Positions 14,964-22,297 are shown, numbered from the stretch's first letter. The stretch is 24,186 nt of DNA from an uncultured Candidatus Saccharibacteria bacterium (GCA_964482105.1 CAYZWA010000001.1:18806-42991); one strand, 5' to 3'. The notes: generated by a model from the sequence alone, not told the origin. Numbers and translations: made by a program.

Positions 14964-16124
14964 ATGAACTCTCCTCTACTCGATACCCATCTTGCAGCCC
15001 CTGCAACCGAGACGCACGTACAATCCGAACTGCGTGCGGTAGCAATCGCTGCCTGCGTGCTTGTCTTGGGCGCGTCTGCCGCATACTCTCCCGCGCTTCC
15101 GCAGGTTGCGGGTCGTGTTGCTACCGTGGCACATCGCGTGGCGACCGGATTCGCGGATACGTTCGGCGCATCGACCGATGTGCGCGGACGCATTGCCCAA
15201 GCGCTCGTGCCGCGTCAGGAGCGCTTGCTGCCGGCATACCAGACAGCGGACCAGACCACGCTATTCGCAGACGCGCAGGCGCATATCGCGGCAGCAACCG
15301 CCGGTTATACCGCACTGCGTGCGTATGCGACCGCCGGCGACGTGGCACAGCCATTCGCTGCCGTGGCGCAATCCGCGCGCACGCGCTCCCCTTCGGCCGA
15401 TATCGGAGGCGCATACGTCGCGTTCGGGCGCTCTGTTATCGCCGTATCGGATTGGTGCATTCACGCTGACATATCGCTCGCGTACCTGATTGCGCGCGCG
15501 GGGTTCGCCGGCGTGTCGACAGCGAACAGATTCGCGCGGTCGGCGGCCGCCGGTGCGCGGATCGCATACGCGGGCGTGTCTGACGCCCTGCGCGGGAGCG
15601 CGCTCTTGTCGGCGGGCGCGCATGAATTCGCTCAGGGCAAGCGCGCCGCGGCGGCTGCGTTCGCGGCAGTCGCTTCGGCGGCAAGCACGCTCTCTGTGCC
15701 CGTCGCGCACCAGGTACACCGCGAGCGATTCCCAAGCCCGATGCCGGACATCCTGCCGGTGCTCTCTGGTGCCGTAGATGCGCTAGGCGAAGGGGTCATC
15801 GCTATAGCACACGCAGCGATTAACGCCGACGTATCGCTTGCGTACGGTATCGCGGCTGCTGCTCCGGCAAGCGCACGGGCCGTGTTCGGTGCGGAGTATG
15901 CCACCGCGTACCGGTTCGTCGCGGTCACTGATACGGTGTCGACCGGGTACGGTCTCGCGGTCGAGCGTGCCGGCCGGTTCGCGTACGAAGGGGTAGCCGG
16001 TGTCGGTGCGTTTACTACGCAGACTGCTGCCGGGGCGTACAGTGCATACCGGTCGATCCTTGATGCGGGTACGTTGCCCGCGGCACACGTCGGCGTACCG
16101 GGACGTACCGCGAAGGGGAGATGA
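14964..16124 (+). CDS. Ala-rich membrane-anchored protein with an internal 29-aa repeat; first gene of the F1-like operon
   Basis: One N-terminal hydrophobic segment (AVAIAACVLVLGASAAY) and two GAxxAxGxxVIAxxxxxIxADxSLAYxIA repeats; ATGA overlap with the next gene. GTG 14925 is an alternative start. Confidence 0.7.
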   Translation: MNSPLLDTHLAAPATETHVQSELRAVAIAACVLVLGASAAYSPALPQVAGRVATVAHRVATGFADTFGASTDVRGRIAQALVPRQERLLPAYQTADQTTLFADAQAHIAAATAGYTALRAYATAGDVAQPFAAVAQSARTRSPSADIGGAYVAFGRSVIAVSDWCIHADISLAYLIARAGFAGVSTANRFARSAAAGARIAYAGVSDALRGSALLSAGAHEFAQGKRAAAAAFAAVASAASTLSVPVAHQVHRERFPSPMPDILPVLSGAVDALGEGVIAIAHAAINADVSLAYGIAAAAPASARAVFGAEYATAYRFVAVTDTVSTGYGLAVERAGRFAYEGVAGVGAFTTQTAAGAYSAYRSILDAGTLPAAHVGVPGRTAKGR

Positions 16125-16957
16125 GACTGCGTATGCGGCGTCTCGTTACCGTGCACGGTCTGGCGTACGCGCTCGTCACAGCGCTGCTGTTCGTCGTGAA
16201 CGTTAGTAGCGTCGCACACGCGCAACAGGCGAGTGACGGGCTGATCGCACGCACGTACGCGATTATCGGCGCACAGCCGGTCTCAGGCGATCTTGTCTCG
16301 CTCGACAAGGCGGCCCAGACGCTGCACCTCTCGGCCACCACGAGCGATGAAGCGATATTCGGCGTAGTCGTGACCGATCCGGTCATCGTCCTGCGCTCCG
16401 CGAGCACGAGCGTGCCGGTCGTAACGTCCGGCGAGGCGCAGGTAAATGTCACGGCGCGCGGCGGCGCCATCGCGCCAGGCGATTTCATCACGACCTCCCC
16501 TGTGCCTGGGAAGGGACAGCGCGCGACGAGTACCGATGCTTTCGTCGTCGGCATGGCGCTCGCCTCGTTCCCTTCGACGACGACGCCTGTGGCCGCGACG
16601 ACAACCGGGAGCATCCCGGTACTGCTCCAGATAGGGCCGTACTCCGGCCATCCTCCGGCGGCCGCCTCGGGCATCTCTAACCAATCCGCACCCACCTCAG
16701 TGGCGGCTCAGACGCCCAAGATCGGTGTGCCGGTGTTCCTGAAGTACCTCATCGCCGCTGTAGTCGCGATCGGCTCGATCGTGGTCGCGTTCGTGAACTT
16801 CGGTGCGAGCGTACGGAACAGCGTCATCTCGATCGGGCGCAATCCGCTCGCACGATCTTCCATCCAATCCATGGCGGTCCTGAACACGGTTCTCATCGTG
16901 GTCGTAAGCGCCGGGGGGATCTTCATCGGGTTCGTCATCCTCTTCTTACCCTCCTAG
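16121..16957 (+). CDS. Signal peptide + exported beta-rich domain + C-terminal ATP-synthase-c-like helical hairpin lacking the acidic residue
   Basis: Signal peptide ending AHA; beta-rich domain at about aa 35-172; P/A/S linker; two TM helices joined by a GRNP loop; sits in the atpE position directly before the atpF-like gene. Confidence 0.75.
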   Translation: MRLRMRRLVTVHGLAYALVTALLFVVNVSSVAHAQQASDGLIARTYAIIGAQPVSGDLVSLDKAAQTLHLSATTSDEAIFGVVVTDPVIVLRSASTSVPVVTSGEAQVNVTARGGAIAPGDFITTSPVPGKGQRATSTDAFVVGMALASFPSTTTPVAATTTGSIPVLLQIGPYSGHPPAAASGISNQSAPTSVAAQTPKIGVPVFLKYLIAAVVAIGSIVVAFVNFGASVRNSVISIGRNPLARSSIQSMAVLNTVLIVVVSAGGIFIGFVILFLPS

Positions 16958-16967
16958 CTACCCTCGT

Positions 16968-19771: not shown

Positions 19772-20619
19772 TCACCCAGGAGAAGAAGCGTGATCTGGAA
19801 GACCTGGAGGCAGTCCGGTTCGTCGCGTCAGCGCTCTTCGACGTGAGCGCAGAAAAGATCGGGCGCCTGCGCGCGGCCTTCGATAGGAACAGCCTCTTTT
19901 ACAACGACCTACATGACCTGTACGGCTCCGTGCGGCGCACGGCGGCCGATCGTGGCGAGCTTCCGCCAGAGCCGCGCACCGTCGCACGGAAGCGGGTATG
20001 CGTCGCGTTCACCTCGAATGTGCGCTTCTACGGCTCGGTCAACGCTGATGTCATGGTCGCGTTTCTCGACCAGCTCGCGCAGGATCGCTCGGCGGGGGCA
20101 ATAGTCATCGGCCGGACGGGGAAGGCGTTCCTAGAAGACACGGAGAACGCGCGCGGCGTGGCGAAGGTGTCCCATGTCTCATTCGAGGCGGATGAACCGA
20201 CGCAGGAAGAGATACGGCACTTTCTCGAACAAGTCGCGCAGTACGATGAGGTCCGGGTCTTCTATCCGTCGTTCGTGAGCGTGTTCTCGCAGCAAGTCGC
20301 GTCGGTCGATATCGCGCGGATCGAGGCGGACGAGACCGACACGCCGGCTGGCGCGCCGGTCGACTACTTGTTCGAACCAGAACTCCCACAGATCATCGAC
20401 TTCTTCGAAAGGAGGGTGCGGTATCTGCTCTTCCAGCGCGTTGCGCTCGAGTCGGAGCTCGCCCGCACAGCGTCGCGCCTGTTCGCCATGAACCGTGCAC
20501 AAGATCGTGCTGACGAGGAGGTCAAGAAAGTGCGGCGTACCATCAAGAAGGACGAGGAAAACTTTAATGACATGCGGCTGCTCGAATCGTTCGCCGCTAT
20601 AGCGAGATGGAAATCATGA
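19762..20619 (+). CDS. atpG: F1-ATPase gamma-like subunit (divergent)
   Basis: [12 protein letters not shown] (canonical TSDRGLCG..N), YLFEPE, and [14 protein letters not shown] (canonical SE..AR..AM); located between alpha and beta. Confidence 0.85.
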
Positions 20620-22028
20620 ATACGCAATTTGTCGGACGGATAGCGAGCGTGCGCGGACAGATCGTGCTCGTACATTGCGAGAGCGCATACCGACCCGCGC
20701 TCGGGGAAGTCCTCTTCGCCGAAGAGGCGCGCAACGTGAAGCTTGAAGTCCATTCGTACTATGACCGGGATCGCATACACTGCCTGCTGCTCTCCTCGAA
20801 AGAGGCACTCTATCGGAACATGCGTATCGTGAGTGACGGCGCGATGCTCGTCATCCCCGTGGGAGACGATGTTCTCGGCCGCGCATTCAACCTCTACGGG
20901 CACCCGGTCGACGGTGGACCGGGCATCGACGATACAGAAACCCGTCCCATCAATCCGTCGTCGCACGGTACGCACATCAGACACGGCGGACAGCGCAATC
21001 TCCTCGAGACCGGCATCAAGCTGCTCGACTTTTTCGCGCCGATCGTCGAGGGAGGGCACCTTGCGCTCGTTGGGGGCGCTGGCGTCGGTAAGACGTCACT
21101 CATGACCGAGATTATCAGGAACCTCGCTAAGACGCACCCGGGCGTCACGTTGTTCGCGGGCATCGGCGAACGCATCCGCGAGGGATTCGAACTCTGGGAT
21201 TCCCTCAAGGGTACCGGTGCACTCGCAAAGACAGCGCTCATCGTCGGACACATCAACGAGAATGCGGCGGTCCGCTTCAAGGTCGGCGCAGCCGCGGCGA
21301 CACTCGCGGAATATTTCCGTGATGAGAAGCGTACCGACGTGCTGTTCTTCGCGGACAACATCTTCCGCTTCGTTCAGGCCGGGAACGAGCTCGCGACGCT
21401 GCTCGAAGAGATTCCCTCGGAGTACGGGTATCAGTCGACGCTCCAGACCCAGGTCGCGCAGTTCGAGAACCGCCTGTCGAGCAGCGATACTGCCTCCATC
21501 AGTTCGGTACAGACCGTGTACGTTCCCGCTGACCAGCTCTCCGACCCTGCGGTCGCGGCGGCGTTGCCATACTTCGAGTCAATCGTCATCCTTTCCCGTG
21601 AGATGAGCCAGGAAGGGCGGTTCCCTGCGGTTGACCTGCTTCGCTCAAAGTCGTCCGTGCTCAATCGGGCGCTCTTCGGGGATCGGCACTACGACGCGCT
21701 CGTCTCGGCGACCGAGGCGCTCAACCAGTACGACCGTCTCGTTCGCATCGTCTCCATCATCGGAGAACGGGAGCTGTCTGCGCAGGATCGGACTGCGTAC
21801 GAACGTGCGCTGCGTCTGCGTAATTACATGACCCAGCCTTTCTTCACGCTTGAAGACCAGACCGGGCGCCCAGGCGTCTTCGTCACGCGGGACGAGACGG
21901 TTGCGGACGTAGAGCACATCCTCTCAGGAGCGTTCGACGCCGTCCCACCGGAGTCTTTTCTCTATATAGGATCCGCGAAAAGCCTCCAAACCGAGCCAGT
22001 TGCCGCTGCCGGTCAACGCAAAGCATGA
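20616..22028 (+). CDS. atpD: F1-ATPase beta-like catalytic subunit
   Basis: [56 protein letters not shown] and QPFF motifs. ATG 20616 overlaps the gamma stop. Confidence 0.95.
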
Positions 22029-22297
22029 TGAGCGGCAGAGCATCAGCATCAGCTTTCCCGGTGGCGGTCACGAGTCCTGATAAAGTGATCTGGGAGGGGA
22101 AGGGGATCAGCGTTAGCGCTGAAAACAGTACGGGACGATTCGATATCCTTCCTGAGCACGCGAACTTCGTTACCATCATAAAACCAGGTGTCTCGATTGT
22201 CGTACGAACCGCAGAAGGTAGCGAACACACGTTCGCGTACAAGAACGTCGTCCTGGCAGTGAAGGACGGACGAGTCGGCATATATGTAAATATATAA
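22025..22297 (+). CDS. atpC: Epsilon-like subunit, beta-sandwich domain only (90 aa)
   Basis: [11 protein letters not shown]...[14 protein letters not shown] matches the epsilon N-terminal domain; no C-terminal helical hairpin. Confidence 0.8.

Follow-up and report, generated by a model that had tools for sequence, protein, structure and literature searches.

The F1-like X0 ATPases of mycoplasmas are tied to the cell surface, the Type 3 enzyme being required for the MIB-MIP surface system and the Type 2 enzyme for gliding (PMC3369863; PMC12994834). The seven-gene mycoplasma cluster encodes a protein with 12 transmembrane (TM) helices as well as a small cytoplasmic protein, and it lacks b and delta (PMC12994834). 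When it comes to the Patescibacteria (the Candidate Phyla Radiation, CPR), alpha and beta genes of the kind described below have been scored as F-type ATP synthase and treated as an ordinary F-type ATPase of 'varied completeness', and ATP synthesis from a host gradient or proton extrusion has been discussed (PMC10633639; PMC12281837; PMC8672522). The canonical operon of Southlakia epibionticum includes genes for AtpI, A, c, B, delta, and alpha, and all of its genes are non-essential in transposon sequencing (PMC10633639). Here we describe an F1-like operon in a stretch of 24,186 nucleotides (nt) from an uncultured Candidatus Saccharibacteria bacterium (GCA_964482105.1 CAYZWA010000001.1:18806-42991); the whole stretch is referred to as the window. 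Eight tightly spaced reading frames on the + strand span 14964-22297 and encode, in this order, an Ala-rich protein, a protein here called X, b, delta, alpha, gamma, beta, and epsilon.

All rotor and stator parts of an F-type ATPase are encoded in this operon except subunit a, and X is a c subunit that carries an ectodomain. We give a little better than an even chance to the reading that this is a strongly diverged F-type ATPase of many CPR lineages which works at the cell surface as an ion-uncoupled, ATP-hydrolysing rotary machine. The anatomical part of this reading is well founded, the functional part plausible yet unproven. No description of this architecture was found in the literature on ATP synthase, the c ring, subunit a or F1-like enzymes in CPR/Patescibacteria.

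The membrane subunit X and the ion path

X (16121-16957, + strand) consists of 278 amino acids and has no match in Pfam or NCBIfam, but its parts could be recognised in an alignment of 28 relatives. It starts with a Sec-type signal peptide (amino acids 1-34, nt 16121-16222) ending at AHA/QQ, and the AHA/Q site is conserved in the alignment. Then follow a probable beta-tulip ectodomain of about 135 residues (amino acids ~41-175), assigned from an AlphaFold (AF2) model and Foldseek, a flexible low-complexity linker (amino acids ~176-202) and a c-type helical hairpin of about 76 residues (amino acids 203-278, nt 16727-16954). The two C-terminal helices are joined by an invariant loop, IGRNPLA(R/K), in which GRNP occupies amino acids 239-242 (nt 16835-16846). 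The AF2 model has a predicted local distance difference test score (pLDDT) of 82 and displays a beta-rich ectodomain and a helical hairpin of 38+34 residues.

Compared with F-type c subunits in Foldseek, the hairpin gives TM-scores normalised to the target of 0.78-0.88 and root mean square deviations of 1.2-2.2 Å. A profile of full-length X has only three matches in the PDB, all of them c subunits in correct register, and all ten matches of a profile of the hairpin alone are F-type c subunits, the best being Acetobacterium woodii c2 (4bem_A, E=1.9e-5); a Chloroflexus subunit gave E=0.0028. In these alignments the ion-binding Glu of the known c subunits faces a hydrophobic column of X. An hhalign comparison of the hairpin profile with the lone E. 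coli c sequence was uninformative (probability 0.3%). Based on the profile matches and the hairpin fold, X is an atpE homologue which has acquired an export signal and an ectodomain. The N-terminus of c subunits is on the outer side of the membrane, and the topology of X therefore fits. The initial annotation had taken the first two slots of the canonical gene order to be replaced, leaving no room for atpE; as to the second slot this has to be revised, since the hairpin of X is a c of the atpE type. Its suggestion that a membrane ring subunit carries an extracellular domain agrees with the signal peptide and the ectodomain of X. In helix 1 of X, small residues recur at i, i+3/4 spacing and form a stripe, but the GxGxGxG of canonical c rings is missing.

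The ectodomain resembles phage capsid cement proteins. Foldseek matched it to those of Pam3 (8hdt_G, E=1e-4), BB1, TW1 (5wk1_K), and XM1 and to lambda gpD, with E=1e-4 to 1e-2 and target TM-scores of 0.45-0.55. PF23982, the family of XM1 gp53, is matched by 14 of the 28 X relatives (best E=7.6e-6), but not by the X of the window itself.

A search of 1.84 billion representatives with the X profile returned 23,458 proteins at E<=1e-3, and at E<=1e-30 the family comprises 1,420 clusters of 50% identity. All of the named members are labelled 'hypothetical protein'. Some of the weaker matches consist of the ectodomain only, inside giant proteins. The putative beta-tulip domain is found in three copies each in P0229 (4272 amino acids) and P0265 (1543 amino acids), and a single match lies in L003 5758-9894 (L numbers denote related loci), which encodes an Ig-like/YadA-head protein directly upstream of X. 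X-family genes are also found without adjacent F1 genes (L021 9908-10726, L023 996-1847, L031 1049-1813), and L006 has a second X paralogue (2376-3197) 7 kb from its operon. In all of these solo or second genes the (G/A)RNP loop is retained and the carboxylate is missing; they may reflect mixed rings, split operons, or a role independent of F1.

To our knowledge, all characterised rotor rings need a carboxylate. The ion site was surveyed in 219 X relatives: 73 came from the first search and 148 were the best of the non-redundant representatives, two sequences without the motif having been removed. The GRNP loop is invariant in these sequences, save for one K in place of R, while not a single Asp or Glu is found at R+16 to R+29 in any of the 219. 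At R+20, which is the canonical position of the carboxylate, the residue is L, V, I, A, or F, and the canonical Gly six residues further on (R+26) is retained in 183/219. Judged by its residues, X is thus a ring subunit that cannot bind ions in the known way.

The search for subunit a and for a small c subunit covered 510 kb from 31 loci, the window and 30 related ones, with about 10 kb on each side of the operon. No ATP-synt_A (PF00119) was found in or beside the operon, and in none of the loci examined does a gene between or adjoining the seven core genes fit subunit a. Fifteen ORFs of 150-400 amino acids with several TM segments are present in these 510 kb, and all are accounted for. The ten that were scanned against Pfam proved to be ComEC, VTT, TatC, TerC, and acyltransferase proteins and one without a match, which overlaps a gene on the + strand; of the remaining ones, two are annotated (TauE, VTT), two overlap X-family genes, and one, unscanned, sits at the ComEC position. 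Nor was there a convincing gene for a small c in the 510 kb, where 19 small ORFs with two TM segments were judged by eye only: none looked c-like, and most are antisense to known genes. The extra genes inside the operon of L020 encode soluble proteins on the opposite strand and were rejected as hidden Fo subunits. The claim of the initial annotation that the operon has neither subunit a nor an ion-binding c is thus upheld for the operon and flanks of 31 loci and for the carboxylate (0/219), with the correction that X is itself the c subunit.

The F1 head, the stalks and the layout of the operon

The alpha subunit (18290-19771; Pfam ATP-synt_ab, E=1.6e-55) and the beta subunit (20607-22028; Pfam) are both encoded on the + strand, as are all the genes of the operon. 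In beta, the motifs GGAGVGKT (P-loop), GERIREG (catalytic Glu/Arg), and DNIFRF (Walker B) are found at nt 21072, 21165, and 21354, respectively, and the arginine finger of alpha, SVTRVG, starts at nt 19334 rather than at 19343 as first annotated. The P-loop of beta, GERIREG, Walker B and the arginine finger of alpha are kept in 17/17 operons (the window and 16 others), and judged by these conserved residues the F1 head looks catalytically intact. The DELSEED motif of beta is altered to RELSAQD. The non-catalytic P-loop of alpha (near amino acids 160-170) is degenerate in the window, where it reads GPTSSGKN with Asn for Thr. The Thr is lost in Kaiserbacteria-like lineages (GKN, GKR, GKE, GIT, GKD), while GKT or GKS is retained in operons of the Microgenomates and Saccharimonadales types; nucleotide binding at these sites may have been lost in some lineages.

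The gamma subunit, which forms the central shaft, is encoded at 19762-20619 (PF00231, E=6.3e-24), and epsilon, with 90 amino acids, at 22025-22297 (PF02823, E=5.8e-13). Aligned with E. coli epsilon, the latter consists of the beta-sandwich domain only, and the C-terminal helical domain is missing in all of the 17 operons. In canonical enzymes the C-terminal helices of epsilon inhibit hydrolysis, and the cytoplasmic GRNP-type loop of c contacts gamma and epsilon. The peripheral stalk is represented by delta (17754-18293), which matches PF00213 (OSCP) with 24.6 bits against a cut-off of 22.3 and the NCBIfam delta models weakly, and by a b-like gene (16968-17750). The b-like protein has no match in Pfam. 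It consists of 260 amino acids, compared to 156 for E. coli b, and a single TM segment at its N-terminus is followed by a long coiled coil; its gene has the same position in all operons. A profile built from 16 orthologues matches solved b subunits (9o19_X, E=1.6e-5; 9itj_U, E=2.8e-4), and the matches cover the TM segment as well as the first part of the coiled coil.

The sequences of the head are strongly diverged. In the window, beta is 36% and alpha 32% identical to the E. coli subunits, and the overall ranges are 35-43% and 29-34%, respectively. The NCBIfam equivalog for beta was missed (TIGR01039, 423 bits against a cut-off of 462.85), and alpha also scores below the cut-offs of its models (324 against 484.45 and 370 against 554). 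These F-type scores are only little above those obtained with the models for N-ATPase and for the mycoplasma F1-like enzymes. Against solved F1 beta subunits, beta scores 299-377 bits each, and against the beta of Mycoplasma mobile G1 310 bits. By this measure, NCBIfam and PDB bit scores being a rough proxy for phylogeny, beta is a long-branch F1 subunit without specific affinity.

The spacings between the eight genes are -4, +10, +3, -4, -10, -13, and -4 nt. The frames of the window operon are intact and overlap as in translational coupling. These coordinates and spacings, together with the Pfam matches and the four catalytic motifs, substantiate what was first said of eight tightly packed genes with intact catalytic elements. 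A perfect 16-nt palindrome, TCTCGTnTAnACGAGA, occurs twice in the window, compared to 0.12 copies expected by chance. One copy, TCTCGTATATACGAGA, is found at 14748-14763, 16 nt past the stop of an upstream gene encoding a helix-turn-helix (HTH) protein, and the other, TCTCGTGTACACGAGA, at 22298-22313, 1 nt past the stop of epsilon. The motif is also found 3' of epsilon in L019 (16243-16256) and L002 (2584-2597). The two copies likely mark the 5' and 3' limits of the transcription unit, and the palindrome may act either as a terminator that lacks a T-run or as an operator to which the adjoining HTH proteins bind. Scans of the window for tRNA genes, Rfam families, promoters, and terminators gave nothing above chance.

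The core order X-b-delta-alpha-gamma-beta-epsilon recurs in about 25 loci. These include loci of the Kaiserbacteria/Paceibacteria type (Parcubacteria), of the Daviesbacteria/Microgenomates type, and of the Saccharimonadales (Saccharimonadia), and one of them sits on a contig of 683 kb. The order is kept down to 41-44% beta identity to the window.

The Ala-rich gene and the surface proteins of the neighbourhood

The first gene of the operon (14964-16124, + strand) encodes a membrane-anchored protein with 26% Ala and has no match in Pfam or NCBIfam. Its last 4 nt are shared with the start of X, and its codon-position GC signal is weaker than that of the neighbouring genes. It is located between the two palindrome copies and is probably co-transcribed with the operon. 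Only weak similarity to the protein was found, in L012 and L013. In close relatives the slot is occupied by variable membrane proteins of 237-452 amino acids, often with an HTH of their own at the start, while it is empty in L005, L006, L008, L009, and L035; more distant operons have nothing or unrelated genes in this place. The Ala-rich gene is thus a lineage-specific insert outside the conserved core, and its first description as a member of the operon applies to the window but does not extend beyond close relatives. As a substitute for subunit a the protein was rejected, since only one TM segment, at the N-terminus, is clear, no family matches it, and it is not conserved beyond close relatives.

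Downstream of epsilon is a gap of 690 nt (22298-22990), which is AT-rich (GC ~0.48, compared to ~0.65 for the window) and has no match to tRNA, Rfam, or promoter consensus. It is followed on the + strand by a gene that runs off the end of the window (22991-24186) and encodes a surface protein, which is a candidate partner of the machine. As judged from its translation and a weak HTH_17 match, this protein starts with a cytoplasmic HTH_17-like domain and continues, past a single TM segment, with a repeat ectodomain rich in G, T, S, and N. A homologous ectodomain is encoded 3' of epsilon in 12 further loci (tblastn, E from 4e-61 to 6e-8; the 13 rows represent 12 loci, as L003 and L004 are identical in sequence).

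Giant surface proteins anchored by a TM segment are encoded 3' of epsilon in most loci, across CPR classes in which beta is 43-50% identical to that of the window (L022 from 16127, L025 from 16087, L030 from 16257, L032 from 16261, and L008 12337-17295). In the loci of the Microgenomates type, the protein in this place has a MerR/HTH N-domain, a TM segment, and an ectodomain of >776 to >1,550 residues with 45-49% G/T/S/N, and one of these proteins carries a Laminin_G_3 domain. L026 and L020 have an integrase-SAM-like N-domain instead. The giant membrane-anchored surface proteins thus start with a small cytoplasmic domain resembling DNA-binding domains (HTH_17/MerR or integrase SAM-like). In the operons of Saccharimonadales there follow a convergent gene for a TM-anchored, bactofilin-like beta-helix repeat protein and a gene for a Cys-containing secreted protein of 250-260 amino acids (L005 17033-18052, - strand, and 18165-18923; L006 16194-17207, - strand, and 17322-18113; L035 16179-17207, - strand, and 17310-18092); neither protein of the pair has a family assignment.

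The HTH gene upstream of the operon (13713-14732, + strand) encodes a protein that begins with an HTH_17-like domain, continues with a disordered region, and is anchored by a TM segment at the C-terminus. Synteny of this gene is confined to Parcubacteria-type loci, and it is apparently transcribed as a unit of its own. Parcubacteria-type loci (L010, L011, L013-L016, L019) have two to three paralogous HTH-plus-TM genes around the operon. Their N-terminal motif, ...GYAKDYVGQLCREGRV.ARLVGR.WYV, shows high conservation (up to 76% identity), whereas the other parts of the proteins evolve fast. The initial annotation had connected the machine to an adjacent fibre protein. A fibre-like neighbour is indeed conserved, but the neighbour in question is the gene after epsilon (from 22991) and not mainly the upstream HTH gene.

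Further upstream, 13-9725 of the window constitutes an envelope polysaccharide cluster, with genes encoding three GT4 glycosyltransferases, a methyltransferase, a Wzx-like flippase, a Wzy_C/O-antigen-ligase-like protein with TPR repeats, and MurB. It is followed by SecA and Obg, and the synteny SecA-Obg-...-operon is common to L003 and partly to L008.

Possible function and relation to known systems

In the proposed mechanism, alpha3beta3 would hydrolyse ATP and thereby turn gamma-epsilon and the attached X ring against a stator of b2 and delta. As the ring has neither an ion site nor a channel partner, it would move no ion, and the only visible output would be mechanical work, transmitted by the ectodomains that form a collar on the outside of the membrane. 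The likeliest target would be the giant surface protein encoded after epsilon, which might be assembled, moved, or reset by the machine. Both the rotation of the ring and mechanical work on a surface structure are inferred. Carried to its end, the argument would make the enzyme, throughout a large part of the CPR, an F-type motor minus the ion path, that is an ATP-powered rotary or cranking device whose cement-like collar drives or assembles giant surface fibres, and thus a new class of prokaryotic surface machine; this extended version we regard as tentative and rather doubtful.

Several points weigh against an ion-uncoupled rotary machine. Ring formation by X is assumed, as GxGxGxG is missing from helix 1. 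The linker of 25-40 residues between ectodomain and hairpin is predicted to be disordered (pLDDT <50) and would thus transmit torque poorly. No subunit a that could hold the b stalk beside the ring was found at the 31 loci, and the solo X genes and the L006 paralogue indicate that X may have roles independent of the ATPase. The gene neighbourhood is only suggestive of a functional link. Further, as the search covered the operon and its flanks, other parts of the genome may contain a separate atpB or even a whole canonical operon, and many X relatives have a polar residue at R+14/15 (N in 118/219, Q in 59/219), though it is not conserved in kind.

The last two points are also those that speak for a conventional ion-translocating F1Fo, in which subunit a would be encoded elsewhere and the X ring would bind H+ or Na+ by means of polar residues (the Asn/Gln at R+14/15 and Ser/Thr in helix 1). 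Some CPR, for instance S. epibionticum, do have subunit a and a small c. The polar position is however located 5-6 residues to the cytoplasmic side of the canonical site, and the stretch from R+16 to R+29 is, in all 219 relatives, devoid of the carboxylate that characterised rotor rings need. Moreover, atpB is missing at the 31 loci although the other seven genes keep the classical order, and alpha and beta fall below the curated F-type cut-offs. A conventional enzyme is thus very unlikely. Even more improbable, in our view, is that the operon is the decaying remnant of an ATP synthase in bacteria that do not respire, with no coupled function left or with an F1 that merely hydrolyses ATP. In favour of decay are the general lack of respiratory chains in CPR, the finding that a cultured Saccharibacterium can do without the canonical enzyme (PMC10633639), and the degeneration of the non-catalytic alpha P-loop in some lineages. 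Decay does not, however, agree with the retention of the architecture, the catalytic residues, and GRNP over very deep divergence in a family of thousands of clusters, nor with intact frames that overlap as for translational coupling, and the gain of a signal peptide and an ectodomain is an innovation.

A machine that uses ATP without rotating continuously is unlikely too, but has to be taken more seriously. Here the X ring would be fixed to the envelope by its ectodomains, and limited strokes, or docking and undocking of F1, would assemble, export, or reset surface proteins. The flexible linker is ill-suited to torque, beta-tulip cement proteins are static, oligomerising binders, and the small cytoplasmic N-domains of the conserved giant neighbours could serve as handles. 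A similar mode of action has been proposed for the mycoplasma Type 3 ATPase with MIB-MIP (PMC12994834). On the other hand, gamma, epsilon, b, and delta are retained together with an invariant rotor loop, which fits true rotation.

If the extended version holds, the 'F-type ATP synthase' in the metabolic reconstructions of many CPR would be unable to form either ATP or a membrane potential. For lineages in which an operon of the X type is the only copy, ATP synthesis from a host gradient and proton extrusion would both be wrong. On the ion-uncoupled reading, the enzyme would be a natural F-type rotor with zero ion coupling, a full stator, and a c ring with an external domain, and such a rotor is a way to ask what rotary ATPases do outside chemiosmosis. 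As the operon is consistently linked to giant surface proteins, it also directs attention to the little-known cell surface of epibiotic bacteria.

When it comes to the individual parts, the ectodomain of X resembles in its probable fold the beta-tulip of the phage cement proteins (lambda gpD, TW1 gp56, Pam3, BB1, XM1 gp53). It differs from these in that it is part of a cellular protein, where it is joined to a membrane hairpin and has a signal peptide for export, and the identity is only about 10-15%. Hairpins that have lost the carboxylate are also found in V-type rings, in some archaeal c subunits, and in A. woodii c1 (PMC9171764). Such rings have subunit a and preserve the site in one or more hairpins of each subunit or ring, while X keeps none. 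The type III export ATPases FliI/SctN are likewise F1-related ATPases serving a surface or export apparatus, which is the kind of role suggested for the CPR unit. They are however homohexamers without alternation of alpha and beta and have no b, delta, or c homologues of the CPR form, and their models score about 170 against cut-offs of about 600. The N-ATPase (atpDCQRBEFAG) is, like the CPR unit, a second diverged F-type lineage, and its alpha and beta models give partial scores (TIGR03305, 407 against 752; TIGR03324, 336 against 750.5). It has subunit a, a Na+-binding c, AtpQ/AtpR, and another gene order, none of which is seen in the CPR unit.

With the canonical F1Fo (atpIBEFHAGDC) the CPR unit has in common the sequence of genes between c and epsilon, a catalytic alpha3beta3 head in which the P-loop, the catalytic Glu, and the Arg finger are present, a central stalk of gamma and epsilon, and a peripheral stalk of b and delta. 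The c hairpin with its R(Q/N)P loop and the Gly six residues past the carboxylate position are also shared. The differences are that the CPR operon has neither atpB nor atpI in or near it, that the carboxylate of c is replaced by hydrophobic residues family-wide, that c has gained a signal peptide and an ectodomain of about 135 residues, that the C-terminal domain of epsilon is gone, and that b is about 100 residues longer.

The mycoplasma Type 2 (G1) and Type 3 enzymes share with the CPR unit a diverged F1 head, a gene cluster without subunit a, and a host-dependent bacterium with a reduced genome (PMC3369863; PMC12994834; PMC11864180). In mycoplasmas the F1 serves a cell-surface function rather than ion coupling, which for the CPR unit is what its composition suggests. 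The mycoplasma clusters also encode a protein that is built like X, from a signal peptide, an ectodomain, and a C-terminal pair of TM helices; X is likened to these proteins (MMCAP2_0577/MMOB1650) by architecture and not by sequence. By analogy with X, this mycoplasma subunit may itself be derived from c. The CPR unit differs in that it keeps b and delta and has no ORF with 12 TM helices, and the NCBIfam models for MSC_0618/0619 and MMOB1660/1670 score far below their cut-offs (196 against 520, 376 against 570, 285 against 600, and 357 against 850). The mycoplasma F1-like X0 ATPases are thus the closest functional analogue, while membership in that group fails on composition and model scores; if the reading given here is correct, the CPR unit would stand beside them as a second, independent example.

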